Source: Raillietiella orientalis
Lineage: Eukaryota
Reading direction: 5' to 3'
DNA length: 64,000 bases
Assembly: GCA_036172245.1 (NCBI GenBank)
Contig: JAYWIR010000050.1
Coordinates: forward strand, 806,001 to 870,000
Shown: one piece after another, positions 5,801-34,100 of the stretch
Numbering within the stretch: position 1 is the first letter of the stretch
How the letters are laid out: the number at the start of each line of letters is the position of its first letter
Position numbers and translations under genes: made by a program
The notes under the pieces: generated by a model
What the model was told of the DNA's origin: nothing
The model's input: only the letters and a program-made list of their open reading frames with translations
Database searches by the model: none

Positions 5801-8349
5801 GGTTCCAGTGGAAAGAGAAGAGAAAAATAAAAATAAAATTTCGAGCTGCGGTTCAACATAGTCGTGTGTTAACAGGGAAAGGCGCGCCCCAATCAACAAG
5901 CATCATTTCGAAAAGGGGTAAGAAAAAAAGTGTTCAGAGTCATTATCGTCATTGCAGGCTTCAGTGGAGTTCCTGTCCGTTTTCCGGAGACAGCCCAGCC
6001 GGAAACCTATTTGCCTACTGATTGAAACTTCATAGCTTCGCTTTATCATCGGAGCCTCATTCTGGGTGGCATCAAACGGCTTAACGAGCAGTTTTTATAG
6101 AGTTCTTGCCTCGGTTTCCTCTCCCGAAGAACGATAGAATTTTTTTTTTGTTTTAGAGACGGTCGGTAACGACTGCAATGAAGTCTCGTGTTTTTTCGAG
6201 TGAATTTCCTAGCTGAAGTTTGAGCTGAATAATTCAATGACAGGCCGGCCTTATCGTGGGCTCAAAGACGTTGGATGAGTAACCATCTACATCAGACCTC
6301 TTGACAACTGATTGTTCTCAGAAGAGGGGGGGGGGGAGTTGCAAGTCCCTAATAAATATCTGTGAAGTACATATTATGCAGAGCGATGATGAAAATTTCT
6401 CGAAACGAGCTAAGCACATCTTGATAGGAAGGCGAAGCAAATGCCATCATCAACCCATCCCCTATAGCTCACTGCCAGCTGTTTTTCCTTTTTCCATCTT
6501 TGAGAACAGATTTCTTCCGGGGAGGAGGCGGCACCCCCTATTCTCCAAAAGTTCGTTCCTCTGTTCCCCCCGATCGCTTTAAGCACGCCGCTTTACCAAA
6601 CTTCTCCCCTTTTGCAAATATTTACAATCTGCAAGGAAGGCGGTCAAAGGGAAAAGAAACCCTAATGAAGCGATTTGAGTAATTACCAGCCACGTGCACC
6701 TCGGATTTCTTACGGCGGCAAGGAAAATCCACTCCCTGCGTGTTCAAAAGTTGTTTTGCATATCTTAACCGTAAGAAGCTCAGGCATGCAGGCAGATTAG
6801 CAAAGTTTCCTTCTTCACGTGCGACGCCCTGCCCGATTCACGGCGAGCTCTTCCGAAAAGCTGCTCAAACGCGGAAACGAATGCTCCACGGTCAAAACAC
6901 ACCTAACTCAAACTGATCTGCCATTTCTTCTTTTTGCCTGCTCTGGAAATTAATAAGTTTTGCGGTTTCCTCCAAAGGTGTATTCGTCATGGGATCTTCG
7001 ATTCATTAAGCACTCGGATGTCACAACGCTTTTGTAAATGGCCACATCTGAGAAGTGGAATCATACACGCAGCTTCTTTTAATCTGCGACTCTCACGAGA
7101 GAGCAGGAGGCACTCGAGAGGAGGAGGAAATCCAGAAATCGAAAATGCTTCCATATTCCCCCTTTCCGTTTCGCCTCTGCAAAAAAAAAGCGATGGAACG
7201 TGATCCGTTGGTAGATCCATTGGATCTGGTGGTTGAAGGATTCGAGCCACACTTTCATGTCCAACCAAACACGTGGACGAGGGACACATTTTTTGGAGCC
7301 TTCTCCTCCTTTTGCACTTCGAGTTGATATACCACCGCCTGGTAGCTTTCCCGATTTCCACTTGGCTTCCAAACCACTCAAATTCCTTGGGAACCTTCAT
7401 TGACCGTTCCGGTGGTCAAACTCCTGCGTAAGCTGACTTCGCAAAATGATCGTTTTTGAATGCTAAGCTTCGCGATTTTAACTTGGCCTCTCTGTAGGCG
7501 CTTTTCCACATAAAGTAGTAATTTATTAAGGATTGCTAGAAACTTCATGAAAATATCAATACATAGTCAACTTGAAATTTCAAGTGTTGATATATCGTAT
7601 AGTTACTGACACGCGGTATGATACTTGTATCTTGGTATATGAATCATCTATTTTAATACTTAATGAGGTCAGCTGATGTGTGGGCGTAAGAATTACGGAA
7701 ATAGTATCGTTACATAACTTACACGTCGCAGAAACGAAAACAAGCTCGCTTTACATAATAAATGAGAAATTGTAGAAAAAAACACTCGGACTCTGGTGCA
7801 AGCATTCTTCGAATGCCGAATGGAGAAACTCGAGAAAAGCCTGCAGATCCCTGAGCCAGAAGGATTTAAGACCGACTGTGCGCAGACTCATTCACTCGGA
7901 TTCAGTGGCTTCCGGATCCATGAGCTGAGGTGCGATCACCGTGGCTAATCAGGAGACTCCATTGAGCTCATTACTTGTAAAATGTTTCGAAATCTCAAAC
8001 TCATCTCGGATGCTGCAAGTAATCCAAGTAGCCGATTTCCGGCATTTATCGATCGCTGGATGCACAGTAAATCATCGCTGCTTGACTCCGAATTCCTTTG
8101 GTCTTGGGAACCGAAATAGATGGCCTGCCTCTGTCTTCTAATCTGCTCGCATGAAATGCACAAAAGACCGTTGCTAAAGGAACAAGTGATGTAGCTCCTT
8201 GCGACTCTTGTACTTTGTGAAAGGAGACGATTTGAAATCAAAATTCCACCATGCGATTCATGGAAGTCGCGACACAATTTTCTGAATACAATAGCACTGA
8301 TGGGAACGGCATCTGCATCACTTCTACGTGGTCACCTCAGCATCTTCCC

Positions 8350-9265
8350 ACTTCGTGCTCATATTCGATCCCTGGCCCACACGAAGAACAACAGCGAAGG
8401 CCATCACTCACTTCGGTTTACAGAAGGCGGAAGGCTGCTTCCGGAGTCCACGCGCCCTCAACGCAAGGACTGCCTTCCGTCCAGTCAGCGCAGTCAGAGA
8501 GGACGTTTGCGAAGAATGCGCGCTACAAGCGAGGTCAGAGTCGGGCCGCGACACGGCAGCCCGGCAAACGGCACCGAAACGTCGCCAGTGCGCAAGGTGC
8601 CACTCCTTCGTCGCAGCATCCGTGCGCCACGGGCCCACGACGCAGCGAGTGGTGAGTGCAGGGTGGAAACGGGAGCTGGTGGCCACCCGATCCCGGAAGA
8701 CATCGCGCGACTGCTTCCCGACCACGCCTCCGGAACGAGGGGCGGAGTCCTGGCGCGCGTTTGAGTCCGGCGGAGGCTCGGCCGCCAGAAGCGCCGGCAG
8801 CCAAGCGGACCGAATGCAGTCGCGCCTCTTCGCCGACGGAGGGAGTGGCGGCTTCAGCAAGACGGGGCCGCGCGGACGGCGAGGTGCGCGGCGGACTCGC
8901 GCAGAAGAAACCAAGGGGGGAGGGAGGAGGACGGCGCGGCGCCAACATCGAGCCTATCCTGGGCGCGAGCCCCGAGACGTTCTGCGTCGCCGGCCAAGGT
9001 GAGCAGCGACCGGCGGGCGGACGTAACCAAACGCGAGGTCTGAACGGGAGGTCGACGGCGACCAGAGACGAAGGCTGGCCGCTGAAGGCGATGGCTTGCT
9101 GCGAGGGTCCCGCGACCTTTTGACCGCGCCTCCAGACGCTGTCCGTACGGAAAGCGGAGACGTCTGGTGGGCGGCAAAGAGGCCGCGGCAAGGATTTTTG
9201 CCGTGCGTCATGGTGGAGGAAGCAGAATGCGACCACACTCCTTTTCTTCTCTCCTGCCACTTCCC
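8350..9265 (+). mobile_element. Decayed 3' part of an RTE-clade (BovB-like) LINE, copy A
   Basis: Frameshifted remnants occur in RTE order: FGLQK..GCFRSPRALN (cf. KGVRQGCILSPxLFN), GWKR..CFPT..GAESW..RAFE (cf. IWK..VFP..YGAESW..AFE), AKRT, and GQGEQRPAGGRNQTRGLNG (cf. GKVEGxRxRGRxxTRWLD). It ends in tgcc..catggtggaggaagcagaa. A near-identical inverted copy lies at 31030-31950. Confidence 0.65.
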
Positions 9266-12200
9266 TCCGTGTGACCAATGTCATTAAGACATAATTCTGA
9301 AGACTGGCAAATGAGCAGAACATGCGTCTGCTGCATTCGTTCAAAGGAGAGGCTTTTGAACAAACGCTCGTCAGATTATTCCTCAATTTGGCGCATCTCC
9401 AGTGCTGAGCTGATATTTCCCGTGGTCCCACCAACCGTAATGTGATGATGAGCGAGAGCTCGTCATTAAAACATCACAAATGACTCGGTGATTGCAAGTT
9501 CCGGGAGTACAGAATGGAGGAAATCCAAGCACACTGTTCTGACTCGGCCCTCGGGATGCGCAAGAAGAAATAATGATCTGCGAGGATTCCGGGGAAAATT
9601 GGCACTGTTACTCCTGTCCGAGATAAGTTATAGGACATGTGCTAGAATGAAGGAGCAAACGATGAAACTTAATGGCTAGAAACCGATTTGGGATGAAGAG
9701 CTTGCTCGGACTAAATTCTTCTTGGGATGTAGACTCTCTAGATGAATTCCGGAATCCTTATGTTACGTGGCTCCCTCCTCGGAAGATCTTCAAAACAAAG
9801 CAGCTAGCTCGCGTGCAAGATGCTCAAAGATGATCCCAATATCTCAGACTTTATTTGAGTTCTGTAAGGCATGAAATCTGCGCTGTGTGTGTGTGTGTTT
9901 GGCGCATTCTGTATCACCTGTCCTTCTGGCGAAAGGAATGTGTGAGCGGAACCCTGCACGAGTGCAGACGTGAATTTGCTGTCGCCGATTCGGGGAAGCC
10001 CTGCTTTTTGATAGCACACTACCAGTCGTAGTGAACTCTCAAAATACCACAGAACATCGCAATATTAAAATGGGCTGCCCACACTTATCCCGTATCGAAT
10101 TTGCCCGAGGATACGAATGGAATTCGACCCTACTATCCAGACCACGGTGGACTACTGAATCCTATGGATGTAGCAGAATTACAAGACGAATCCAACGAGA
10201 AAGGATCGCAACTTTTTTTTTCCAGAAACATTGCGTTTGGGTTAGTAAGTCTGCACTCCTAATCAATTACTGTTTATTTGTGTGTGTGTGTGTGTTCTTC
10301 TTGCGATGAAGAATCCATGTGGATCCGTGCAGGTTCATCATGCTGTTGGTGCCTCGGAAAGGACACAGAAAAGCTCGTTTCCGAAAATCAATTCCCGAAA
10401 ATTCCGACAGGCTCAGCTCGTGAGAAAGCAAACGGAGTACTGTGATCGCTAATCTTTAAAACAGCGCTCCAACAGCTCGTTCCTATCTATCCAGAATCCC
10501 TCACGCTCCAAAGTCATTCTGAAATGAACAACATCGTTTGTTTATGCTCAAATTAACTGGAATCGCAGGAAATGCAAAGCAATGCCGTAATTTTCGGTAG
10601 GCATCCGATCCATGCCAAACAGAGAGGCATTATGGACTTTGTAATCTGAATGCCAAGTTCTACAGAAAATGAAAACGAGCAATGTGTAATGAAAGCGCCG
10701 GGGGCAGCAGCGGAACGACTTTGTAATTACGCGAGCGTGTAAGGAGGAGGAGGAATGCAGCAGCATTTTCGCCTCATTTGAATTCTGATTCCGAAATGAG
10801 ACAGTGAAAGTGAATAAGCCGAAAAGTATCTGATCTTCCTGATGGCGCAGCCTCAGCACGCATGATCTTCACCGTCGTCCTGCTTGCTGGAATCCACAGC
10901 TTCACATCTGGACCAACTTATGGCAACAGGTCAGTAAGGCGAAAAGACCTCCCCTACCGAGCGACCAGCTGGTTTGGTTTCAGTGACACCTCAGCTACCC
11001 CACGTTTCGCATAAGCATCTGATTCGCCCGCATTTCGATTCGGTTTGGGCGAGATAATTGCAAGCAAGACGATTTTCAGCAAGATAAGCGAAGTACTTCC
11101 CTCAATATGTGGAGAGCATGAAATCGGTACTTTTCTGAGAACTGTGGAACAAATGCTTCTTTCTCTACTGGAGGGAGGAAAAAGAGTAAAACCATGACCA
11201 TGGGAAAAAATTTTTTTTGCTACCAAAGGCCTTTTTGCGATGACTTTTGCTTAAATCGGGTAAAATGGAAAACCCGTTTCCATGCAGGTTTGAGAGGTAT
11301 CGGCATCCGTACCGTACTGGTGCCACCGGTGCCGTCTTCTAACACTCGATTTTTAGGGTAATGTGTTTCGGAAGAATTTTCGCGCGAATTGGGAATGCCA
11401 AGTTGTCCGAAAAAGCAACACAAGAAAGAAAGGAAAGGAAAAAAGGGAAGGACAATTCCTGAAAATGCAATGGAAATGAAGAAATCAAGTGAAGAATTGT
11501 TTGTAGAAAACGAGATATTGAGAAAAAAAAGAAAAGAGGGTGCGATTTAATGCCTTGGATTAAGAACACACTTCCCAAAGCGATTGTGTGTGAGATAAAG
11601 GAAAGGGAGGTACACATCCGGGCCGAGACGATTTTCTAACGGAAACCGACGCAGAAGCGCAAGAGAGGACACTCGGGATCAATTAAAAGTGGTTCTGTGC
11701 CATCTGTGGAATCCCAAATGCAAGAACGTGTTTTTTCGCGCCGAAGGGCATTCATTTGCCCGTGATGTGACCTAAGAGCAGCCAAGTGGCGAGTTCTCGT
11801 CCTCGTGTGCCAAGTTTTGATCATTCGAGAGAAAGTGCGGTTGTCATCATCCCGGGGCTCGACGGCTCCGCCGCACGCTGTTGTTTAGGAGGCAGCAGCA
11901 TTGCTTCCCTGAAGACAACCTCAGGCACTCTGGAATAGCTAGTCAAGGAGTAGAGGGAATCCGCATTCCGATTCTCAGAATCCACTTCCTGGTTGCAACT
12001 TCCCCGTTCCCGCTGTCTCTACATTTTCGTTGCCCACTTCTCTTCCTGCAGAGCTCGATCGAACGGAGGCGGCCACGGGGTTAGCCATCCATATGGCTCA
12101 TGAAATCACACGAGCTTTGACAGAGATACGTCAGATGAAGAAGCTGATCAAGATCTCGGTAGAACATGGAGGGCGTGAGAAAGCTCGGCGGTATCTCTCA

Positions 12201-12513: not shown

Positions 12514-13144
12514 AAAATGCGCTGAAGTGGATCAGAGGAAGTGGAAGAAATTGCCCTCGGAATAATGGCAGAGTGAAGTCTTCGACCTCTGAAAGGACCG
12601 AAGCGATCGGTTTGTGATGCTGCGTCCACATCCGCGAGAGCATTTTCCACACGACGTTTTCTGATGCTTAAATCTTCCGAGTTTGGTTTGTGTTTTTTTT
12701 CCCCCCCCCCTGTGACGGAGTCATTCAGAAAAAAGATGCTCGCAGTCACATCCCCGGCAGCGCCGAAGCACTCGCCCTCAGGACGAGCATCCGGGGCACC
12801 GATGAACCTTCAGGTCACTTCCTTTAAAGTTGCATGAATCTCTTCGCGGTGACTCGAATGTAAGGATGATGCAGAGCTGAAGAAAAATGTCCCGAGCAAG
12901 GACGTTCTTCCTTTTTGAGTTCCGTCGTCGTGTTTTCCGAGTAGAACGGAGTTTCAGTGGGTTGCGAATTCCCGGATGTTCCATACTGCCGACGAAGAAC
13001 AGAAACAATGCGACCAAGGGGACAGACAGGACGCCGTGGGGCTCGTGGGAGTGCCTGATGAAACGTTCAGACCATTTGAAGGGAAAGAGGGAGGTTGGTG
13101 TAGGATCGGGCCTGCTTGGAATATTCGCCCTACTGTTTGTACAG

Positions 13145-13895
13145 TTCTTCGACAGCCACCCGAGGGTGGGTAATTCTTCAAGATAAGGGGTACCCCGGGA
13201 GCATCCGCCATATGCATCCGGGAAGGACTCGGAGTCCGTTCCTCTCATGCCTGGGATGGGATCCCCGGGAATGGAAATCATTTCCACCCTGGCTGTCTCC
13301 GAAGGGGAATCCCGAAGGGAATCCTCCTGCCTTATTCTCTCCGGAGGATCCCCGGGGGGTCCGCTTCATCCTTTCTTCTCTGAAGAGAACCCGGAAAGGA
13401 TCCGCTCCTGGAATTTCTTCTCCGGAGGGATCCCCCGAAAGGGATTCGCTCCTGTTTTTACCCCTCTGAAGGGAGCCCCGAAGAGGAGCTTCCGAAATTT
13501 CTCTGAAGGGCGCAGCTTTCCCGAAGGGATCGGCTCGCTTCTCTGCACTCTCTGGAGAGGTGGTGGCGACACACCTACTCCATCAGTACGACACTGAGGG
13601 TTCCCCTCCGGAATGGAGGGTCCGCTCCTTCACAACCAGAGGAGAGCTCCTACTCCGTGATTCCTGGGAGGACCCGGAGGTCGACTCGACTTTCTCCCGG
13701 CCCTCATCGGGGGCATCCTGTCTGAACTGCTACCAGTGCCGCACCCGGATGAACGTAGGCCGACCAGCGTCATCTTTGTGGGGTGAATTCGGAACCCCAC
13801 GACGCACTGCGTCGATTCAGTTCGGAGTATTCGAACCCGCGACGTTTGGTGCCACTCGCGGAGACCACCGTAACCACACGGTCTCCGACGCGGGC
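13145..13895 (-). mobile_element. tRNA-headed SINE, full-length copy 1 (~750 bp) with 12-bp target-site duplication
   Basis: The minus strand starts GCCCGCGTCGGAGACCGTGTGGTTACGG...GCGGGTTCGAATAC (A/B-box-like) and ends CCACCCTCGGGTGG-ctgtc-GAAGAA. It is flanked by ctgtttgtacag at 13133-13144 and 13895-13906. Confidence 0.85.
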
Positions 13896-14498
13896 TGTTT
13901 GTACAGCCCCATCAAGTTTGTTTGCCTCCTCGTAGGGGGTGTCGTACCAAATCATGCCGTACATTCTGGTGCTTCGTTTTGTGGGCATGTGCACACACGT
14001 ATGCGTGTGCGACCATCCGTGTAAAGAGTGCACACTGCGTGTACGTGTGCACATGCATCATATATGCATGCATGGGGCTGGATAGAGATGCATTGCTTTT
14101 TACGAGCATTTCTGGACGCTTGACGAAAATCAATACACGGGATGGGGAGGGGGAGGATCCCGGCGCACAATTCGAACCGAGCTGTGCAAAAGTATCAGAA
14201 ATGCAACGTGCAAATAGCAAAGCTCTCGAGCAAAACACGGCGCCGCGCGTGCACGTTTTCCAGGTGTTGCAGGACCGAGCTTTTTTTTTTTCCTTTCTTT
14301 TTTCCTTCCCGAGGTGATCCCTCGGAACCGCGTGGTCGCGACTGCAGTCCGTGAGGCGCGGGGGGGTGGGATGCGGAGCCCCGCGCGGCATGCGGGGGGC
14401 ACGGCAGAGGAAACGGCAAGGCACCCGCGACGGCACGGATGCACGCCGAAGGGCCTGCCCCTTCGAAGCACACGGCAGCGTGCGTGTGAGTTTTTTTT

Positions 14499-14994: not shown

Positions 14995-17900
14995 ATGGAG
15001 AGGGGGTCCAGCTCCGGGTTCCTGGTCGCTGCTGCTGTTTTGTGCTCCTCGCTGCTGCTCGTGCCGGGATTCGCCTCCCCGAACGGTAAGACACGCTCGA
15101 ATGGGAGGGAGAGGGAGAGGGAAAAAGAATTTTCTTGCCTGCGCTCGTTCCCCCGCCGACCTGGCGTTCCAGCAGCCCTGCGGGGTGAAATTTTCCTACC
15201 CCTGCCTGCGTGATTCCCCGGAGTCCACCCCCACGCCGCCGCCGCGTCCATCCCCAGCGGCGACAATGGGGAGGGAAGCCCGCTCGGGGAATCGCGATCC
15301 CAAAATAGACCCCGCCGTAGCCATGGCACGCTTCTCTCCCCTCCCCTCCCCCCCGCTTCCATTGTTGGCACGGGGTGGGGGGAGCGGGGGTACAGTACAA
15401 GAAGAAAAAAAATCGAACCGATCCGGCAGTCCGCGTGCACGCATGTGTACACACACACGTACACAAAAAGCTGTAGTGCACGTGTGTCTGTGTGTATAGG
15501 GAGGGCACGGCTCGTCGGCCTTTTGGCTAAGATCGAAGCATATATATATATATATCGATTGTGAGCTACGATGCTTCCCAAGTGCTTCTGGTAGCTCCGT
15601 GTACAAAGCGCGCCTTCGTAATCCACGTCGGCCCCAACGTAAGAAGGCGAAGACTCCCGAGTGGAAAGGGGCCCTCCCTTGGATGTTGGATAGTCCTCTC
15701 CCACCCTTAGAACCTGGAAGATCGTCCGGACGTGGGATGCGCTGCCCGAGGATGGGGACGCTGGATCTTTCGGTGCGTCGTGGTGCGCTCCTCGAAGGGA
15801 CCTGTTGAAGAGGGGGCTGTTCGGATCCTCGGTGGATTCGCAGGCGTTCTCCCGTCCCCATGCAGATATTCCTGGGTTCGGATTGGGGCTGTGGGGGGCA
15901 CGGATGGAAGAGATAAGCATCGCAACACGATGTGTGCGCTGCAGGCATCCGCCACGAAGAAACGCTCAGTTGCAGCGGATCTATCGATTCCGCTCTTCCC
16001 ATATCTGATTTCCGACAGGGCATTCTCGAATCCTCCATCTTGAGAGCCCATTCTTAAGCCGTGAGCGGCCGTTTGTCGGTGGAAGCTCAGCCGCCCTCTT
16101 GCGTTCTTTCCGACTAATCCTTCTACAAACTTCCACGCAAATCTTCCGCCGTGGCAGTGTGGTCCCAGGATGAGGCCCAGTTCCTGCGGGTCCGTGCTGC
16201 TTGCAAAGGGGGACGAAAGCAAATCGTGGCGCGAAGGAAAGGAACGCGCGACTCCTGGGCTGCGGAAAGTGGTATAACGAAACCGTCCCGTGTCCAAATC
16301 CCCCTTTCAATTTGACCTGATTTTTCCCGGAAACCCATCTCGGTTTTCAGCTCAACGTGGTCGGCCCACTGGTATCTGCAAGAGCAACAGTGTCATGCAT
16401 GAGCTGGGAATTCCCAGAACGCATACTCAGCGGCAGCCTTGCTTCTTGAGCGAACCAAGGGAGAGCGTAGAAGGCGCAGGCATCCTTTGCCACCTGCACC
16501 ATCCTCACCAGCTTCGCCTCCTTGTCCTGCTCGTGTGGGCTCATGGAATCGTTTCCGAAAATCCTCAGTCTGCATCCTCCGCATCAGCTGGCACTGGCTC
16601 GTGAGCGTTCCGGGCGGTTCCTCCAGCGGAGCGCTGCCGCGGTTTAGGGGTTCGGCGGATATCGTGGCCTCTGGCATTGGGGGCGCGAGAGCCGTCTTGC
16701 CGAAGCCCGGCTGCGGGATCGCTGGCCGCCCTCACCACTGCCAACGTTCGGACGCCCCTCGTTGACATGGAGACGGGGAGGTCTTTGAGCTCGGTCGGGC
16801 GACCTTCAAGGATGGCCGTTCTTCTCTCTTCGAGCATCGCCGCACCCGGAAGGAGGTCCCCTCTAGGGATGAGGGTGGGGGTAAGGAGACCACGCCCCAG
16901 CTCCGGTGTTCAGCTGGCATCCTAGGTCGGTGGGTCGAGGCCTTGTGCCGCCAAATGTGCCCGTTGGGCGGCGCGCCGCGAGCAGCGCCGCATCGCGCAC
17001 GCGGGACCTCCTGCAGCTACGCCCCCTCTTGACCTTGACCGGGAAGAAAAGGGGGGGAAGAGGACCTTGAAGGGGACACCGCGTAATGAATGTAGAATCC
17101 GGGAATCGGAAGCAACACGGAAGTGCATCCAGCTTCCATGTGATCCTACGCGCGACGTGTCCTCTCCGTAACGGAAGTGTCGGGGGATGTCGCGCCTGGC
17201 TGCACCGAAGGTCGGCGGGCGCCGGACGCATCGGGTGCAGCACCCGCCGAAGAAGGTCTGCTACTTTCCATTTGCAAAGTTCCAGGCAATGCCGAGGACA
17301 GAGCACAACCCAAGGGAAGAACCTCATTCTTTCCAGAGGGATCCCCTGGTTTGCGGAGACCGCTCCCCTGGTTTGTTCTCCGGAGGGACCTCCCGGAAGG
17401 GATCCTATCCTCGTTCCCTCCTCCGAAGAGAACCTCGAAGAAACGCTTCCCGATTCCTCTGGAGAGCGCTCCTCGAAGGGAGCAGCGCGCTTGTGGCACT
17501 CTGGAGAGGCACCTCTCCGAGGGGGGTATCAACCGGCTCCATGGTAACGGCTCCGTTTTCACCACAGGAGAGGAACTCCAAAGGGCTCCTTGATGGAAGG
17601 ACCCCGGAGGATCCTTCTCCAATCCCGGCCGGTCATCGGGGGCATCCAGGGACATTCGGCTTCCACCCGTGCCACGCCCGCGGCCCGCATCATCCCTCGG
17701 GGGGGGACTCGAAACCCACGGCGCACCCAACTCACTGGTTTCGACCTTCCCCCGTGTGGGATTCGAACCCGCGACGCTTGGCACATCGCGCGTTGTGCCA
17801 AGGCCGACGCGGACCGGAGAAAGCAGCCGAAAGTCCCGGTGTGGCTGTGCGTCCAGATTGCGGTGGCTGAACGCGTCCTCACCCCGATAAGAAGCACCCC

Positions 17901-19107: not shown

Positions 19108-22100
19108 TATGATCTTCCGAGATTCCGATATTTGGGATTTTAGTCGACAGGGCGTCGATAACACCTGATGGCGACTGTAGCCTTCAGAAATTGTCCGTGC
19201 TGAAGAGGTGGGGGGGAGCCACTTGGCCGCCGCCATGGGGTCGAGGGTGGAAGGAGCTGCCGCTGTGCCGCCGCAACCCCCGTCGGCAGGCGCCCCTGAA
19301 CCGCGTGGCTCGAGAGCGGACGCGGAGCCGAGTCCTCACTGAAGTCTTCTCCCGAATGGATCTCTAACTGTTTTCTCTCTGCCTGTCTTCTTCCTCTTAG
19401 TTTCATGTCAGCAGGTCTGCTTGGAGCGGACCAAAAAATGTCAGATTTGCTGATGACTCCCAGGTCGGGTTCTCAGAACCTCCAATCTTTGACCCCGTCC
19501 CGCCACCATCCCATCCTTTAGGAAGAACGGCTCGAAAATGTTCCGCAAACTAGTTTGAAAGGGTTGCATCCCTTGACCAGAATCGCAGTGTCTTTTAGTC
19601 AGTTTTTTCGGTTCATCTTTCGAGATGCCTCAGTTTCCCAATTAACTGTTCGATGTCCTCCATTTGTTAGCCTTTTGCACGGATTGGATATTGGGGCTCT
19701 TGAGACTTGCCCGTGAAGCTGCTTCCCTTCTGGACTGAGGGCTGAAAATCCCAGTCACTCCGAAAGGATCCAGTGAAACAGCAGGAAAAAACTCTTTCTC
19801 CTTCCTCTTTCCTTGCCTTCCCAGCTGCAGCATCAGTGGATCATTGTTCTCTTTCAAAAGCTCATATTTGGAATTTTAGCTCCACAGCATTATTTGTTCT
19901 TTCGCCTGGGCAAGCATTTTCCATATCCCAGCCTTTCTTTCTTAGTAACAGCTTTGTAGCACGAACAAATCCATCTAATCCTTCCATATAGGATCTGTTC
20001 AAACAGCCTATCTTCCAATACATCTTACATTTGCATCGTGCAGTAAAGATCATTGCTATCGATTCTACGAGCTCTTTACGCGATAAAGGGAATCCAGTTG
20101 AAGGAATGAGGAAATAAAATGAAATCCTCACGTCTTTTTCCTCATATTTCTGTTTCCTCATCCCCTCCTGTTTCAGAATTTTTCCTTGATTCTTCTGCTG
20201 GAATCTCTCTTCGGTCTTTTCCTCACCTTTCGAGTGCTCAATTATTCCATTTACTCAGTACCAGCCGCTCGATCTGTAATGTTACTGTAGTCGTTATACT
20301 TCAATTTTTTGCCTTTTTAGGAAGAAAATCTCTTTATCTTTTTTCCTTGCGCACTGTTTCGTCTTCGACGTTCGGTGAGGTGGCAGCACTTGCATTGTTG
20401 CGCAATCTCCTGCTCCTCGACCGTCGACTCTATATTTAGCTCTTCGAGGCCCCGCGCTCCCATCCAGAGCCGGTCGCTTCCGGCGCCTTCGCGCGCGCGC
20501 GCTTCAGGTAAGCGTGGCAACCCTGCCGCTCGCTCCCTGACCAAGGCGCGAGCAGCCCCTGAAGTTTTGCCGCGCCTTGTTTTCGGGGGCCCCTGGGCTG
20601 CTGCGATCGCTCTCGACTCGGCCCCCCCTCTTTCTCCGAAGACCCCCCTCCTCGCGAAACCGGGATGGATCGGTTGTCCTGGCTGCGGCTCTCGCCTCCC
20701 GGTAGCCAGACTCCTTCCGACCCCAGAATTCCTTGGCGCGATCGCTTTTCCGCACCCCCGCGGCCAACGTCCTCTTCTCTCGATGAAGGCCTTCTCTCCT
20801 TCTCAGAATCAGGAACGAAAAAAAAAAAGGTTTTCCACGCGCCTGCTGCGGAGGTCCAATGATCTCGCCTTTCGTTTGCGCTCACTTCCGCATCCAAACC
20901 TTCCCATCTCGTCTTCGTTTCTTCCGTTGCGTTCTAAATTCGAGCCTTCCTGGGAGATGCTGTGCAGACTCAGCTTTGGCGAGGATTGCATCGGCACTAC
21001 GGATGGTTTTCCGTCGCTCCTTCGATTTCCAAGTGGTTCTGGAAAACGGCTCAGCACAGAAATTTTTAAAGAAATCTCTTTCATGGTTTGAGCTCATCGT
21101 TTCGTCTGAGCACTTGGCTGCTGCTGCTGTCAGCGGTCGTCAGACGTGTGCGTGCTCGTCACTTGTTTGTAGCCGACGGCCGTTGCGTGCAGCCAGACGT
21201 GAATGAAAATACCCGATCCGCCTGTTCTTGGAGTCCACTCAGGCAACCAGAGACCTTCTTCCATTTCTATTCCCCCCCACCCCCCCCTCAAAGGGCTGCA
21301 AACGTGACTCTTTCTTGTTGCTCCATCGGATGTTCTGAAGCACGTCGGAACATCCGATTTCCATCTGCTCACTTCAAGGAACTCTCTTCTTCGCCGACTT
21401 CCCTCGTCCACTGCAGTTTCCTTAAGAATTCGCCTCTTCGTCTCTGGGATGAAGTCACGGGCGTCCGATTTTCTGATCGGCATCCAGTCGTTCCTGATTT
21501 TCTTTCCCGGGATCAATCCTCCCGTACGAGGATTCGATAAACGGAATTTGCAGCCTTAGATGAGCTGCCATCCATGGGTGGCAGAAGAAGAAGAAGAAGA
21601 AGAAAAACAGTCCGTGGAAACGAGAGGCTGCAGTCTCGTTGCTACTACGACAAAGACTTTATCCAGCAGTGTTTTCGAAGCCCTCGAACCCATTTTAGAG
21701 TGCGAATCTTAGTTGCATCTCAATCCAGCTGATCTCCTTGCATGCCGACGGCGCTCGCAACGACTCTGTTGGCGAAGGGAAAATGTCAGGTCGGTTTGAC
21801 CTACCAGCTGAGCCAATCTGGCCACTAATTATGCGAATAACATGCAATTATCAACGAGTTTCAGTCAAAGTACCTTTGTAGTTACCAAAATAACGCAAGG
21901 AAATTTTCACTGAAGCCGAAAGAAAGCCTGGGGCGGAATTTTATTTTATCGAGTGAGGTCAAAAAAAAAAAAAAAAAACAGCCGTTTTAGCTGGTAACCA
22001 GGAAATCTTTCAAGTTGCTGAAATTGCCCGCTGCGCGTGGAAGGCCGTGACCGCGGTCCCAGCGCGTCGTGGCATTCGTCGCTGGTTCCAATCCCACGTA

Positions 22101-25100
22101 GGGGGAGGGTCGGCGCCAGAGAGATGGGTGCGCCGCGGGTTTCGAGTCTCCCCTGCAGGACGACGCTGGTTGACCCACAGGCATCGGGTGCGCCGCCGGT
22201 GGAAGCAGAAAACCCCCAGATGCCCCCCCCCACCTCCCCTTTCCTCAATGGAGTGGCCGGGACTGAAAGTCGACCGAGGAGCCACCGGTCCAATTCGGAG
22301 TTTCCCCCCGTCCCCACCCCTCAGGGGGGGACTCCCCTCCATCCTCGTACCACGGGGTTTGTTGGATCGATACCTCTCCAGAGTGTGAAGAAGCGGGCTG
22401 CTCCCTTCGGGGAGCGCCCTTCAGGGAAAATTCAGAAGCGTCCCTTCGGGGGGTTTCCCTCCCAGGCGAAAGAGGGACGGAAGACCCCTTTCTCCGGAGC
22501 TCCCTGGATTCCACTGGGTGGTCGCCCTTCCCGGGGTACCCCCCTAACCTGAAGAGTTCCAAATTCATAATGGAGCCTGTGATCCTCTGCCGGCAACTGG
22601 CCAAGAGGGGGCGTCGGGAAAATGTGGAATTCATAGAATGGCGGGGATACGCTTCACGTCACGGTAGAAGAAGCGATAGGAAGCGCGAAGGGCATCCGCT
22701 GCTCAGCCATGCAGAACGCGCCTCCGCAAGAGGAGAAATTTCCTCTTGCATCTCGTTGATCCTCGAACCTTCAACGACTGTTTTCGAATTTCTGTTCCAG
22801 ATGACGATGAAGCTGAATACGACGCGCCTTCTCTGTGGAACAGCTCTTTTTCGCGAACTGCAGCGGAGCTGAGCTCTTGCGTGAGGAATGAGACGCTGGT
22901 GGTCCTGCACGGAAGGCAGTGCTTCCGAAAGTGCATCCATGACGACGAGTGCAAGAGCAAAAGGAAGAAGTGCCGTTGTGACGGCGTCTGCGGCATGTCG
23001 TGCATAAAGCCAGGTGAGAGCGCCCTTCCCTTCCTTCCCCGATGGCGAGTGATTTTCGATTACCCGGCGCATCCATCTAGAAGGGGTGATGGGTATGGGA
23101 TGAACTTATTCCCAACGGGGAATCGGGGAGGCGGTTCGTTTCCCGTGGATCTCTCTGTCCCTTGCCCACAGGAGCTGCGCTTGCGATATTCGATATTGCA
23201 GCTTTCACTGCACCGAGATCATGTGTTCTCCTGCCATTATCTCCGTTCTTCAGCAAGGAATACTGATGCTGTTTCCTTCAGTGCTCCTCAGAAATATCAA
23301 TTACAAAGTCAATGCATCCTGTCGATTCGGTAAAAGACTAATTCAAGATGGGTGTGCTTTCTTTAGAGCTCTCGGGCTGTCTCCAGCCATCGATGAACAA
23401 AGCGAATTCTTTTCGTTGCTTCTGGCATGGAAGAAAAAAGAAAAGGGGGAAAAAGATCCCCAGAATCCTTCGGAGGAAGTTCTTCACGACCTGGTGAAAT
23501 GATTCGCTCGCAGTCTGCCGCGAGCGCAAACGAGCCTGTTACTAAGCAACAGATCTTTTCCGAGTCGACGATTCCTCTTTTTCCGTCCCCGTCCACTGGG
23601 GAACACCCTGTACTTTTAAAGGAGGTCGAGGGGCAGCTAAGAAGAATTCCTGAAGTCTTCGAGACCCACCGCTAGCTTGGAGTTCATCAAAAGTGTTTAA
23701 TAAGAGGGCGGCCAAGATTTTCACGCACATCTTCTCCACATCTCGGAAGAAGCGGGAGGAAATTTTCGAGGCTCCTGGATTTCCGCTGTCGTCCCGAACC
23801 GAACTCCCCTCATGAATTATCCAGGTGGATGGCTCGTATTGATTTCTTCTGCATCTGATGAGGCGAAGGATTCATTCCGAGGAGCAATCAGCGGTCACGC
23901 GTTCGAAGAAGTTTCAAGCTAATCCTTCCGCGACCTTTTTTCATAGAAGATCCTTTGCGGGCTGGTCGGATTCAATGAGGTGAGGTAAAATAAAATGCTT
24001 CCGCACACATTCTGGGCTCCAGTTGTAATTTGTGGAGCCCCCTTGCTCATTAGCCACTGGTCTTGACAGGATGAAGTTAACAGACCACAAGAAAAGAGGG
24101 GAAAGGTCCTCAGAGGGTCTCCTGAAGAATGCAGGATCCGTACGGACGAGAAGCCATGCGAACTGCAATTTTCGTTCTTGTACAGAAACCGATAGTGCTT
24201 CTTGCCCACCGCAGTCTTTTAGATGAGACCCATCAGCCACACTGAAAACCCACTGCTAAAAAGCTCTTTGCTGTTCAGCAAACACGACAGAGTTGCAAAG
24301 GGGTTCTGGGACTGGCATGCTTGTGCGTATGTGTGTATGTATGTATACACATGTGTGTTTTCCAGTCTGCATTTCTTGTTCTTGCTCTTCGCACCTGTTC
24401 TTTCTCCATTTCGTTTCCATTGGTTTTCATTGCGTGCATTTTATTTTATTTTTATCCTCACTTTTCTCCTCTCGGTATCCATCTTTTGAGCAAACGTTGG
24501 TTCCTTCCTCTGGATGCCGGTGGGCAAGCGCATTCCTCTGCCCACAGATAAGATATCTGATTCTATCTCAGCTGCCATCCCGATCGATAAGCATTCTAAA
24601 AAAAATCCATATTTTGTTTTATTTTATTGTTTATCAATTACTTTTCCTTAAATGGTGAAAAGTGCATTTGCCCGCTGGGCTGTTCACCAACCTGAAAATC
24701 AACGCCAACGAAAAATTCCAACGGTCCGTTACTCCAGAATATGCTCTCTAATGTCCTCGAGATGCAAGTATAAAAACGTGTAACGAACATTTGATGACTG
24801 TCCCTTTCCTGCCTATAATTTATGGAACAAAATGGAAGTGGCTGGAAGCTGCTCGTAGGTTTCCCCTCCCCTGGAAGATTAACGGGATCGGGCCGCTGAA
24901 ACGAACAAGTGAAAAATCAGAGGGAGAAATGGCTGCAATCCCACAAGTGAGTTCCCCGATCCCTGCAGGCAACTGGAACGGGATTTCCACGGACGACGGA
25001 GTGCTGTAGCCGACTTGGATCGAGTGCCTGGAAGAACACGATCGAACCGGGTGCTCCCAAGAAGAGAGAGAGAGGAAAAAAAAGATGGTCCAGTTGTGTG

Positions 25101-28100: not shown

Positions 28101-31100
28101 GTTAGAGAAGTGAAGAGCCCCCGGAGTGAGAAAATCATTCCTCTACATTCAGACATGCTTTGACTAGATCAAACGGTCCATTCGACCCGGTTCATTCTGA
28201 CCACAGGCCGCGAGCTACGAACGAAGCTTTCCGTGTCTTCTACGTTTTTTAAAAGCACGTCGCTCGAAGCCTCTAAACTGGGATGTTGGGCAGTATTGGA
28301 CAAAGCATCCACTCATTCCCCCATCTGTCATAATCCACTATGGCATCCGCAGGTGCAAGAACTGTCGAGGAGGAGTATTTATTGCAGCAGCATCAAATTG
28401 CCCCTTCTTGCTCACTGTTCCAACACGTGATTCCGGTTTTCCATTCCATTCCAAAACCAGACGAGTTCCCCTACTAAATATCCTGATGGTTGGCGCCCCT
28501 TTCCCATTTGCACGTTCGCCAGTGGAATGCTGGGAGACACGCGGCTTTGACTGTCGGCGAAGAGGCGAGGCGAGTCGCCGCCTGCACTCGGCCCTCTCCG
28601 TCCTCCGGGCTGCTTCCCCACACCGCTGTCGAGTTGCCCGCTCGGGCAGGAGCATCCGGTGAGGATCCTCGTTCGAGGGCGCCTTGCAAAATTGGTCAGG
28701 CTCTCCCACCAACACCCCCGCATCGCTTCCCTGATGTGCCAGACCAAACAAACGGTCCTGCCTAGCCGAATGCGCGCAGAACCCGAAGCAGAGCTCCGAC
28801 GGCCGAAAAGGCGCCCCAAGGACTCGTGCGATGATGGAAATCTTTCCTTTTCTGTCTTCGCAGTTCTTCGAAACGGCTCCAGGCCACCCGAGGGTGGGTA
28901 ATTCTTCAAGATAGGGGGTACCCCGGGAGCATCCGCCATATGAATCCAGGAAGGACTCGGAGTCCGTCCTCTCATGCCTGGGATGGGATCCCCGGAAATG
29001 GAAATCATTTCCACTCTGGCTGTCTCCGAAGGGGAATCCCGAAGGGAATCCTCCTGCCTTATTCTCTCCGGAGGATCCCCGGGGGGTCCGCTTCATCCTT
29101 TCTTCTCTGAAGAGAACCCGCAAAGGATCCGCTCCTGGAATTTCTTCTCCGGAGGGATCCCCCGAAAGGGATTCGCTCCTGTTTTTACCCCTCTGAAGGG
29201 AGCCCCGAAGAGGAGCTTCCGAAATTTCTCTGAAGGGCGCAGCTTTCCCGAAGGGATCGGCTCGCTTCTCTGCACTCTCTGGAGAGGTGGTGGCGACACA
29301 CCTACTCCATCAGTACGACACTGAGGGTTCCCCTCCGGAATGGGGGGTCCGCTCCTTCACAACCAGAGGGGAGCTCCTACTCCGTGATCCCTGGGAGGAC
29401 CCGGAGGTCGACTCGACTTTCTCCCGGCCCTCATCGGGGGCATCCTGTCTGAACTGCTACCAGTGCCGCACCCGGATGAACGTAGGCCGACCAGCGTCAT
29501 CTTTGTGGGGTGAATTCGGAACCCCACGACGCACTGCGTCGATTCAGTTCGGAGTATTCGAACCCGCGACTTTTGGTGCCACTCGCGGAGACCACCGTAA
29601 CCACACGGTCTCCGACGCGCGCAGAACCTGAAGCGAAGCTCTGCCACACGGCAGCCGAGAACGCGCGCAGTTCCTGCACGCCCGGCGTGCTTCTTGGCGG
29701 CGGAGCTCGGTTAAGCGGACAGCATGATTGGAGAATCCGAGTTCATTTCCTGTATCCAGGGGTCGCCCTTATTCACCGACCGATTCCACTTCCCCCTGTT
29801 TTCGTTCGCGGCGAACCGGAAATGCGGATTTTTACGGGGTTGGAGGTTCTCTATCCGGCCGAGGTCCCCTGTCGGCCGAAATGTGGCAATGAATCCGCTA
29901 GAGGTCATGCTCCACCCATCCTTCCGATCCATAGGCTAGCAGAAAGGAGGGGAGGGCGGTAGAGAAGGAGGCAGGTAGAGGACGCCAAGGCACACTTCTG
30001 CAGTAACCTTGCCAAGCGTCCGAAGATGGTGTCTGACTCTCGACCACCTGCCTCTTCCCCCCAGCTTTGGTTGCCATGAAACGAAAGGGTAGGGACGCAG
30101 GTGGGTGCAGGACGGGATGTGGACCCTCCTGCTATTTCTATGACAGCCAAAATTGCCGCCTTTACAGCGACTTGTGCTCAACCCTCTCTACGTTTGCCTT
30201 CCAGATGCCTCGGTGACTGCCGAAGAGTCGGCTTTCTCAGACTTCTGCGAAATCCCGGAGGAGATCCCGAATGCTTACCACAATGCCTCGGGACAGATCA
30301 GCTTCCCTTTGAACAGTATCCTGATTTATTCCTGTTTGCCCGGCTACGAGTCCAGGGGATTCGCCGAAGCCAAGTGTTTCACCTACAATGGGACGGCCAA
30401 GTGGTTTGGTCCAGACATCAGTTGCCAAGGTGAGCGCATCCTAACGGATAGATGGATAAGTAGGACGAACATAGAGAGTGCTCCGCTGTCCCTGCAGAGC
30501 TGCTGCTTTTCCCTTTTTCCCTATAGTCGGGGTCAAACATGCTCCTCAGCAACCCCAGACTGTGCGCCAGACGGGCTCGCAGAGAAATTCCGGAAGCGTT
30601 AGCAATGCCGGGGCCACCTCGCAGCAGTCCGCGAGGGACGAAGGATACATAAATTTGTGGGTCAGGTTCGCGGGAGGAGAGGCGTTAGTCCAGTCGAATT
30701 TCGATCGTCCGGTCCTCCGGTTCAGCAGCTCCGAAGAAGGCCACACGGTTATCCGCTCGTGCGCCCTACGAGAGTGGGAAGTGGAGAAGGAACCTCAAAC
30801 GAGCCACTCCTGATTCCTTCCCTCTGCCAGTCAACAGGCGCAGACGCGGCTGTCTATGCATACGCGGAACCAGGAGCCAGAGCCATCTCTCGGGCAGAAT
30901 CGAAACTCACAACGCACCATATGGTCGACGCCGAGTTGGCTCGGCGTCGACCATATGGAAGCACGCGACGATTGGTGCTGCGTGCAAGTACCTTCCTGAT
31001 CCGTCGCACCCATTCCACGTGGAGGAAAGAGAAGTGGCAGGAGAGAAGAAGAGGAGTGAAGTCGTATTCTGCTTCCTCCACCATGACGCACGGCAAAAAT

Positions 31101-34100
31101 CCTTGCCGCGGCCTCTTTGCCGCCCATCAGACGTCTCCGCTTTCCGCACGGATAGCGTCTGGAGGCGCGGTCAAAAGGTCGCGGGACCCTCGCAGCAAGC
31201 CAGTGCCTTCAGCGGCCAGCCTTCGTCTCTGGTCGCCGTCGACCTCCCGTTCAGACCTCGCGTTTGGTTACGTCCGCCCGCCGGTCGCTGCTCACCTTGG
31301 CCGGCGACGCAGAACGTCTCGGGGCTCGCGCCCAGGATAGGCTCGATGTTGGCGCCGCGCCGTCCTCCTCCCTCCCCCCTTGGTTTCTTCTGCGCGAGTC
31401 CGCCGCGCACCTCGCCGTCCGCGCGGCCCCGTCTTGCTGAAGCCGCCACTCCCTCCGTCGGCGAAGAGGCGCGACTGCATTCGGTCCGCTTGGCTGGCGG
31501 CGCTTCTGGCGACCGAGCCTCCGCCGGACTCAAACGCGCGCCAGGACTCCGCCCCTCGTTCCGGAGGCGTGGTCGGGAAGCAGTCGCGCGATGTCTTCCG
31601 GGATCGGGTGGCCACCAGCTCCCGTTTCCACCCTGCACTCACCACTCGCTGCGTCGTGGGCCCGTGGCGCACGGATGCTGCGACGAAGGAGTGGCACCTT
31701 GCGCACTGGCGACGTTTCGGTGCCGTTTGCCGGGCTGCCGTGTCGCGGCCCGACTCTGACCTCGCTTGTAGCGCGCATTCTTCGCAAACGTCCTCTCTGA
31801 CTGCGCTGACTGGACGGAAGGCAGTCCTTGCGTTGAGGGCGCGTGGACTCCGGAAGCAGCCTTCCGCCTTCTGTAAACCGAAGTGAGTGATGGCCTTCGC
31901 TGTTGTTCTTCGTGTGGGCCAGGAATCGAATATGAGCAGGAAATGGGAGGACGTCGAGGAATGGAGATGCCACTCGTTCACATCCCAACAGGCTGTTCCC
32001 ACCTCACTCTTTATGAGCTTTGCTCTTTGATGTCCTGTAGAGGAAGGGCTGCAAAAGATCAGTCTGTTGCTGCTTTGCGATCGGTAGAGGTCGGATAATT
32101 GGCACTAGGGACATTCCGTACGCCAGCAGGAGATCCATTCGGCATCGTCCCTTAAGGCCCTGCTCCTCATCTCCGACGTTTCAAGCTAGGGTCCGCATGC
32201 GGGGACTCTGGACTTCCCGGCGTCCACCTTGGGGGACAGTGGGAATCGCCGTCACGACCTTTAGATCACCCGTGCATCGCGAGCCGCGTCGATGGTTTCG
32301 TTTCCCAACTACCGTCTTCTCTTCTGCCGCCCTCTTTTTCTTCCCTGCTACCCTCTCTTCTCTCCTACTGTTCTCTTCTTCTTCCCCACTGCCCTCTGTT
32401 TCTTCCCTAGTGCTCTATTCTTCTCTACTACCCTCTTCTCCTCCCCTGCTATCATCTTCCCCTTTTCAACTACCCTATTCTCGTCCACTTCTCTCTTCCC
32501 CTCCCCTACTGCCTCTGATACTGGTTTCGAAATAACAGAAGACATCCTTAGCGCTAGAGGAATGAAAACGACAGATTGGATGCGAAGGGAGAGGAAAGCG
32601 GAAACGGAGCAGGCAGCTGATGAGGAGTTCCGCTACATAGGTCTTGGGAGAAAGGATTCGAGGGCTGCCAAGGAGAAACGAATCACATTGGCACTCCTGG
32701 AAGCAGGCGGACAGCGCGGAAACCGGCCATGCCCGCTCCGAAAACGGCGGGTCCTTAAGCGTCTCCCATCCGAAACGCCTGGGATCGATGATGACTACCG
32801 ACTTTTCGGAAGAGGAGACTGGGGTTTCATTTCGGAATCCCACAAGAAGTGTGGATAGCTCGAGGACTTCCTCTGCACACTCGGAAAGCGAGTCTCGCCC
32901 TTCTTCTGTGGGTATCTTTCCTACCGCTGGGAATCCTGGAGTTTGCCCGAAGATCCGCAAGCGGGGTGGACGTTCCGCCACGGCACGTCTTGGCTTCAGC
33001 CTGCACGCTGAGAGTCACGTAATAGTCCTCCCCCTTCTCCACCCCTTCCTCTACCATAGACTCTCCACTCAAGCCGACGGGGGACCCTGCGAGCCACCAC
33101 GTCATTTTCCCACCGAGACGCGCAGCGTGTGTGCTCTTCCGCGTTGCCTCCCACGCGAAATGCGTGCGACCATCGGGTTGCCACCGGAAGCTTTTTGGTT
33201 GATTCTCCCGTCGACCTGTGGACCCAGCGGCGACTCCGCAAGAGTCGGTGCCTAGAGGGTGCAAGTGCGAGGCTTCAAAGGAGTGCCCGAGAGCCACTGC
33301 CAGCAAGTGCCGTAGAGTCGTTGGAACCGCGAGATCTGGTGGACAACCGCCTCATGGAAGATCGCCTAGAAGACAGCAGAAGCCGACAAGAGCAGAAACG
33401 GTGCGCCCGGACATCCAGTGCTTCCTGTGCGCATCCTGGGAATAGCGTTCAGGTCACCACTCGCGGCGAGCATGCGAAAAGTCAAGAACTGCATGGCAGA
33501 CAGCTGCAAGAGGGCGGCTGCGTCTATCTAGAAGTACCAGAAGATGGGGAAGACACGTCCAGAGTTGGCAGTCGGGAGCAGTGGCGAGACTTGGTAGGGA
33601 AGCTGCCCGCAGCTAGCGGCAGCAGTGGTAGCAGCAAGTGGAGGAAGAGGGGACGGAGATGGCAAACCAGAGAAAGAGAGGAGGAGGAAGAAGAAAAAAA
33701 GAGAAGGAAGGGAGGGAGGAGAATGATTAGGAGGATGATGAGAAGAAGAAGAGGGGATGGAATGATCACGTCGTCCTGCCGTCTCGGCGTCTCCATGGTT
33801 AGGGCATTGCAGAGCCGTGCCTCCAGGCTGGAGCACTGAGCGAAAACCAATCGGAGACCGCCTTCTTTCTTTTTTCGCCTACAGAGTCTCCTTCCTTTTG
33901 TTGTCCCATGGTGTCTGGACAGCACGCGGGCCTTGGGGCACACGGACGTGACGTAGGGATGCGTCCCGCATTCCTTATCTTTTGCGGAACTCCTAGCTGG
34001 CTATGCTCTAGCGGGCGGAAGGTTCAGTGGCGCCGCGTCCGCAAGTCCAGGACGTGCCACTCCTTCCTCCTTTCTTCTGCATAAAAGACACCCTGAGGCA

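Follow-up and report, generated by a model that had tools for sequence, protein, structure and literature searches.

A dispersed repeat of about 0.75 kb, whose middle part carries a string of small hairpins, some of them with a TTCG loop, raises the question of whether these hairpins are a working part of a mobile RNA or a by-product of a repeated sequence motif. The original prediction described the repeat as a tRNA-headed SINE whose transcript would be a highly structured mobile RNA made by RNA polymerase III (Pol III), with an expandable module that could act as a multivalent protein-binding or nuclease-protection platform. Our analysis of the window, which is the whole 64-kb stretch of DNA that was analysed, favors a simpler interpretation, with a probability of roughly two in three: an unclassified, long (~0.75 kb), SINE-like non-autonomous retroposon that depends on a LINE and has a quasi-oligomeric body. 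Selection for RNA shape is not needed to explain the hairpins.

Family copies in the window

Copies were located by searching the window with copy A using BLASTN and nhmmer, and a fragment was added with a family HMM (Table 1). The family was found to comprise five copies and one fragment in the 64-kb window, dispersed over 27 kb and with unrelated flanks, the elements being 751-755 nt in length. All five copies of the original prediction were found in their places, and the head-only fragment is a sixth, additional member. The pair of nearly identical copies had been misassigned, however: the 98.4% twin of copy A is the copy at 28.9 kb, the fourth in the original list, and not the copy at 17.3 kb, which aligned with A at 73% over only 161 nt by BLASTN within the window.

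Table 1. Positions of family members, their parts and other features in the 64-kb window
Feature	Position	Strand	Description
Copy A	13145-13897	-	Young full-length element, about 751-753 nt; target-site duplication (TSD) CTGTACAAACAG at 13133-13144 and 13898-13909
3' end of copy A	13145-13170	-	Small hairpin CCACC-CTCG-GGTGG, then CTGTCGAAGAA; no poly(A)
Units U1-U6 of copy A	13289-13535	-	Six degenerate ~40-nt tandem repeats; short palindrome in each, C-TTCG-G in four
Second T-arm-like hairpin, copy A	13770-13800	-	
B-box-like motif GGTTCGAATAC	13827-13837	-	In head of copy A, about 60 nt from the 5' end
Copy C	17261-17814	-	Old; head and array; 3' ~150 nt undetectable
Copy D	22032-22700	+	Old; head and array; tail undetectable
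Copy B	28873-29624	-	98.4% identity with A; unrelated flanks; 9-nt tail insertion; 5-bp CTGCG at junctions
Fragment F	30876-31020	-	Decayed head-only family piece that abuts another repeat; family HMM, E 2e-5
Copy E	39360-40114	+	Old, full-length; head/array/tail order as in A; 64% identity to A over ungapped columns
Second T-arm-like hairpin, copy E	39445-39475	+	
Second repeat family, two copies (>=932 bp each)	8335-9266; 31028-31959	+; -	98% identical, inverted orientation; no Pfam domain
Weak WAP match	22680-23330		Pfam, among the 250 longest ORFs
Six Sushi (CCP) exons of one multi-exon gene	30246-30404; 34260-34424; 37927-38091; 49147-49240; 54626-54799; 54897-55043 (about)	+	Pfam E 1.5e-7 to 7e-4
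AT-rich degenerate tandem repeat cluster	41626-42216		TATATGTA-like, periods 14-28 (TRF)

Read in element orientation (minus strand), copy A starts with GCCCGCGTCGG and ends with ...CCCACCCTCGGGTGGCTGTCGAAGAA. One young and one old copy, A and E, are collinear and have head, array and tail in common order. Identity between these two copies was 74% in the head, 73% in the tail and 71-77% in units U2-U4, compared with 36-57% at positions 136-334, a difference to which alignment quality may contribute. Copies C and D retain the 5' end without the tail, and when their tails were sought downstream by local alignment, nothing scored above shuffled queries.

Copies A and B differ by 1.6%, and two copies this close together indicate that the family was active recently. 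Because their flanks are unrelated, A and B are separate insertions and not parts of a duplicated segment; a segmental duplication as the origin of this pair was ruled out on the same grounds. No transposon-type Pfam domain, including reverse transcriptase, was detected among the 250 longest stop-to-stop ORFs of the window (all those of at least 109 aa, out of 664 of at least 60 aa), and no ORF of a family copy had a Pfam match in the same scan.

Genomic setting

The window has a G+C content of 54% and a CpG observed/expected ratio of 0.95, which gives no sign of germline CpG methylation decay. The G+C content varies from 0.38 to 0.65 per 2 kb, with GC-rich repeats embedded in AT-richer native DNA, and the Sushi exons likewise have a higher A+T content than the GC-rich intron repeats. 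Since these exons lie on the plus strand and span about 30.2-55 kb, at least copies B and E are located within or next to introns of a multi-Sushi gene of animal type. With introns between Sushi-domain exons and no CpG depletion, the genome is animal-type. The two copies of the second repeat family lose their similarity sharply after ...CTCTCCTGCCACTTC(C/T)CT, and the end of one of them, at 31028, is no more than about 10 nt away from where fragment F starts at its 5' side.

Head of the element

A B-box, scored as GGTTCGAATCC with at most one mismatch, is present in each of the five copies that have a head. The window contains seven such matches, compared with 1.57 expected by chance, and five of the seven lie in family heads. 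This conserved B-box suggests transcription by Pol III, and the SINEBase paper (Vassetzky and Kramerov 2013, PMC3531059), in the part of it used here, treats A and B boxes as an indication, not a proof. No convincing A-box was seen in the head by inspection by eye. The sense strands of A and B are free of T4 runs, of which only about 1.0 would be expected, and this would be compatible with Pol III transcription.

The head had also been described as derived from tRNA, and on this point the prediction was not borne out. ARAGORN at default settings called no tRNA, whether run on the window, on the five heads or on a majority consensus made from four of them, and Rfam returned no tRNA match in copy A at E<=10. 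Rfam matched copy E to tRNA-Sec at 13.2 bits (E 4.6, gathering score 47). When the ARAGORN threshold was lowered to 80% (-ps80), three of the five heads were called, along with a total of 62 calls across the window, or about one per kb, and the head calls were therefore set aside as noise. A second T-arm-like hairpin is located ~50 nt behind the B-box, as GTGGGTTTCGAGTCC in the old copies and GTGGGGTTCCGAATTCACCCCAC in A; besides the sites in A and E (Table 1), it occurs at the equivalent place in C and D. It may be the remnant of a second tRNA-like unit.

Ends and insertion sites

The 12-bp TSD attributed to copy A was confirmed on both sides of the element. In the test, which scored an 11-nt shared word within 40-nt flanks, none of 1000 flank shuffles shared a word as long as the scored one. 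The repeats at the junctions measure 12 bp in A and 5 bp (CTGCG, not significant) in B, and none was found in E, which leaves a significant TSD in one of the three full-length copies. No terminal inverted repeats were found, all seven inverted pairs detected being internal to the element. The combination of terminal inverted repeats and a fixed-length TSD that characterizes MITEs and other cut-and-paste elements is thus missing, with TSD lengths differing between copies, and the family resembles a SINE rather than a DNA transposon, as the original prediction had proposed.

The small hairpin at the 3' side (Table 1) is located ~11 nt from the 3' end of the element. Beyond the ...GAAGAA end, the next 12 nt of A (CTGTACAAACAG, 13133-13144) and B (CTGCGAAGACAG, 28861-28872) agree at 8 of 12 positions, and the flank of E (CAGAGTCAAAGAG, 40115-40127) is loosely similar to them. 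Both clear junctions have CTG directly after ...GAAGAA. Such flanks may reflect a target-site preference or microhomology at priming (n=3). Neither a partner LINE nor a LINE with a common tail was found in the window, where nothing outside the family shares the tail and the 250 ORFs scanned contain no reverse transcriptase domain.

The array of ~40-nt units

The six tandem ~40-nt units of the original prediction are present. An HMM made from six units that were cut by hand from copy A scored these units at E 1e-5 to 5e-9, and its matches at E<0.01 were confined to family copies, with six each in A and B, two in C and one each in D and E, and weaker ones beside them. Periodicity analyses detected the array less sharply: TRF reported a period of 42-44 with only 1.9-2.5 copies and 71-80% matches, and the autocorrelation of the array peaked at lags of 44, 86 and 40, at a value of 0.39 against a shuffle maximum of 0.38. 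The unit array is genuine but worn. A 28-nt piece of unit U3, used as the query in a metagenome scan, had no matches.

Units of copy A are 69-79% identical to units at the same position in other copies, compared with 56-72% to their neighbors within A. Because the units are closest to their positional counterparts, the array had already been differentiated in the ancestor of the old and young copies. It is thus old and not freshly expanding. The original prediction also held that the number of units varies between copies. The whole basis for this is one 41-nt gap in the comparison of A with E, and since this is the sole unit-sized length difference among the copies, the description of the module as expandable is weakly founded.

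Hairpins and folding of the array

The hairpin strings given in the original prediction, including GCTCCC-TTCG-GGGAGC at ~22400, are all present in the sequence. CTTCGG occurs four times in A (sense strand), four times in B, twice in D, once in C (within the array) and not at all in E; the four in A compare with about 0.2-0.4 expected, and the whole window contains 70 on both strands compared with 54+-7.6 expected. The local enrichment arises because one motif is repeated along with its unit.

Hairpins with loops of 3-7 nt and stems of at least five or at least six pairs were counted in the 300-nt array and in dinucleotide shuffles of it. The array contained eight hairpins with stems of at least five pairs, compared with 6.5+-1.3 in the shuffles, of which 67 of 300 reached eight, and six with stems of at least six pairs, compared with 4.1 (40 of 300 shuffles had as many). 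The antisense strand gave the same hairpin counts as the sense strand. The density of hairpins is what the C-run/G-run composition of the array yields, and the view that there are more of them than chance would produce did not survive this comparison.

Folding energies led to a similar result. With the pair span limited to 40 nt, the z-score for the array of A was -1.17 on the sense strand (23 of 200 shuffles were as good) and -1.48 on the antisense strand, and the sense-strand values for C, D and E were -1.57, -1.29 and -0.65, respectively. Whole-element folds, each compared with 20 shuffles, gave sense/antisense z-scores of -3.1/-3.0 for A and -1.3/-4.1 for E; the two strands score alike, without a bias toward the sense strand.

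Conservation of pairing

Compensatory change was sought in an alignment of units U1-U4 from the five copies, which represent four independent lineages and thus give low power. The covariation term of RNAalifold was +2.12, which is a penalty, with a double change in 8 of 54 predicted pairs. In a second test with 34 hand-placed local pairs, 81.2% of the cells were paired, compared with 79.6+-0.9% when the 3' partners were shuffled (40 of 500 shuffles were as high), and changes on both sides were found in four of the 34 pairs, compared with 2.8 in the shuffles (123 of 500). A covariation score of 0.197 was nearly equalled by sliding the partners by -1 (0.191). A hand-placed second hairpin of U3 (columns 158-169) was unpaired in all copies and was dropped before the pair-count test. 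In the young copy, the U1 hairpin has lost three of its six ancestral pairs. A hand count in the hand-defined stems gave 18 sense G.U cells and eight A.C cells, which are not independent and many of which are shared by descent.

The retention of hairpin energy was compared with neutral drift by simulation, in which the majority of C, D and E served as a stand-in ancestor and the 35 substitutions of A (18.8%) were placed at random with the same base type in 400 runs. The real A folded at -63.8 kcal/mol, compared with -59.9+-5.3 kcal/mol in the simulation, and 94 of the 400 runs were as stable; for the antisense strand this number was 41 of 400. The original prediction had named covariation and the retention of stems as its own checks, and neither came out in its favor: pairing differed little from the shuffled controls, and the young lineage keeps no more hairpin energy than neutral drift would leave. 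The pairing tests show no selection on the fold of the array, at the low power that four lineages provide.

Comparison with known families

Rfam 15 gave no match in the 64-kb window at the gathering score. The best matches below threshold were sX13 (20.9 bits, cut-off 50) and CRISPR-DR58 (16.6 bits, cut-off 38), and the matches at relaxed threshold, including these two, tRNA-Sec, EBER1 and others, were set aside as chance-level. No description of a SINE with an array of UUCG-type hairpins was found in a literature search of sources represented in part. It is possible that the family has already been catalogued in the Repbase, Dfam or SINEBase banks.

As defined in the part of the SINEBase paper used here, a SINE is dispersed, shorter than 1 kb, present in at least 100 copies and at least 60% identical to tRNA, 5S or 7SL RNA over 60 nt (Vassetzky and Kramerov 2013, PMC3531059). 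As to size and dispersion (<1 kb, interspersed, non-tandem), the present family falls within this definition with its 751-755 nt and unrelated flanks. It further resembles the tRNA-related SINEs described there in being non-coding, in its head-body-tail order, B-box head and TSD, and in having old and young subfamilies. Unlike them, it has a head that passes none of the tRNA tests applied and a tail that is neither a simple repeat nor poly(A), and its 751 nt exceed the 75-662 nt spanned by the 175 SINEBase families of 2012 (PMC3531059). The family is SINE-like, and not a proven SINE.

The closest architecture in the same source is that of CHRS, a quasi-oligomeric SINE in which a degenerate motif of ~20 nt is repeated more than 10 times (PMC3531059). 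In both families, a short degenerate motif repeated in tandem makes up the body, and the number of repeats differs between variants, which here is seen as the 41-nt gap between A and E. Six units supported by the HMM together with that gap give the present family the same quasi-oligomeric build, as a match of architecture only; its unit is, by contrast, ~40 nt long, present about 6-8 times and palindromic in each case. CHRS is a mammalian (cetartiodactyl) family, to which no sequence relatedness would be expected.

SVA of hominids is a composite retroposon with an internal VNTR. The present family is like SVA as a non-autonomous retroposon with an internal GC-rich minisatellite, whereas SVA is transcribed by Pol II, poly(A)-tailed and driven by L1, and the copy number of its VNTR is strongly variable where the unit order here is nearly fixed. 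LINE/SINE pairs of the stringent type have a 3' stem-loop. The non-poly(A) 3' end of the present family, with its small stem-loop, is like that of SINEs with a LINE-derived tail or body and would allow recognition by a LINE reverse transcriptase. That parts of LINEs contribute the bodies and tails of SINEs has been described by Kojima (2018, PMC5786205); the bodies treated in the part of that paper used here come from 5' parts of RTE and Vingi LINEs, not from 3' UTR arrays.

Proposed mode of movement

A source copy would be transcribed from the internal promoter in its head. A partner LINE would recognize the non-poly(A) 3' end of this RNA, i.e. the small hairpin followed by ...GTCGAAGAA, and its reverse transcriptase would insert copies at new sites by target-primed reverse transcription. 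Insertion by this route would leave TSDs of variable length. The ~40-nt units in the middle of the element would be the decayed remains of a minisatellite that the ancestor shared by the old and young subfamilies already carried. Because each repeated unit contains a short GC-rich palindrome, the array yields a row of small hairpins, of which some have a TTCG loop.

Dispersed copies with unrelated flanks, the 12-bp TSD, the absence of terminal inverted repeats and of ORFs with a Pfam match, the conserved B-box and the lack of a T4 run in A and B uphold the part of the original prediction that placed the family among non-autonomous SINE-type retroposons. From the sequence we infer transcription by Pol III, dependence on a LINE and a functionally neutral array. 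Several observations fit this interpretation poorly: the head is not recognizable as a tRNA and shows no convincing A-box by eye, one of three full-length copies has a significant TSD, and the window contains neither a partner LINE nor a common LINE tail. Copies C and D keep the 5' end and lose the tail, although truncation of retroposed copies usually affects the 5' end, and none of the 175 families in the SINEBase compilation of 2012, as given in the part of that paper used here (PMC3531059), reaches the length of this element.

Alternative interpretations

The same observations can be accommodated by a non-autonomous LINE derivative, in which a short promoter-like head is joined to the 3' UTR of an L1/Tx1-like LINE and the array is the minisatellite of that UTR. 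This is a special case of the preferred interpretation with a defined origin of the body, and it is put forward tentatively as a possibility of distinctly lower likelihood. It agrees with a tail that ends without poly(A) in a small hairpin and a short sequence, as in SINEs that copy the 3' end of a LINE, and with the published concept that LINE parts serve as SINE bodies and tails (PMC5786205); the 250 ORFs without a reverse transcriptase domain and the failure to find the tail outside the family in the window argue against it, as does the use of 5' parts, not 3' UTR arrays, of RTE and Vingi LINEs described in the part of that paper used here. A DNA transposon derivative (MITE) or a Helitron-type element, with the 3' hairpin as its transposition signal, would account for the position of that hairpin and for copies C and D having kept the 5' end without the 3' end. 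Such an origin can hardly be credited, given the absence of terminal inverted repeats and TSDs that differ in length (12 bp; 5 bp or none). A Helitron was rejected on two grounds: the element has the ends GCCCGCG... and ...GAAGAA, unlike the TC...CTRR ends of Helitrons, and Helitrons are not known to produce a 12-bp TSD.

In another explanation, the element encodes a functional, highly structured Pol III RNA: either selection maintains the array as a multivalent platform for protein binding or nuclease protection, or the SINE derives from a structured ncRNA. Units U2-U4, which between A and E are as conserved as the head and the tail and above the middle, speak for it, together with the four C-TTCG-G of copy A and the excess of G.U over A.C cells in the hand count of non-independent cells. 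It is nevertheless highly unlikely: no Rfam family was matched at the gathering score, local-fold z-scores were -1.2 and -1.5 on the two strands, the hairpin count lay within the shuffles, the covariation term was positive, and neither paired cells nor both-side changes stood out from the shuffled partners. The neutral-drift runs, the lost pairs of U1 in the young copy and the old copy E, which is without any C-TTCG-G, point the same way. With local folding, covariation and drift within their null expectations, folding equal on both strands and units that are positional orthologues, the highly structured RNA and its expandable multivalent platform find no support as they were proposed. A working role of the array as an RNA part, for example as a landing pad for the RNA-binding protein of the partner LINE or as an exonuclease shield, is very doubtful. 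It would explain why U2-U4 are conserved to about the same degree as the promoter head and the tail recognized by the reverse transcriptase, and if true, it would represent an unusual modular SINE design. Were retrotransposition to require the array, the family would offer a simple case in nature of a SINE with a modular RNA platform; none of the present results points in that direction.

Conclusions

In conclusion, the LINE-dependent, SINE-like retroposon that is preferred here looks like an ordinary selfish repeat, though a long and oddly built one. Measured against SINEs the family is long, and its quasi-oligomeric body is built of palindrome-bearing units; its significance beyond repeat annotation is slight. 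With its recent activity, it would be useful as a marker family and is a candidate for defining the partner LINE in this genome.
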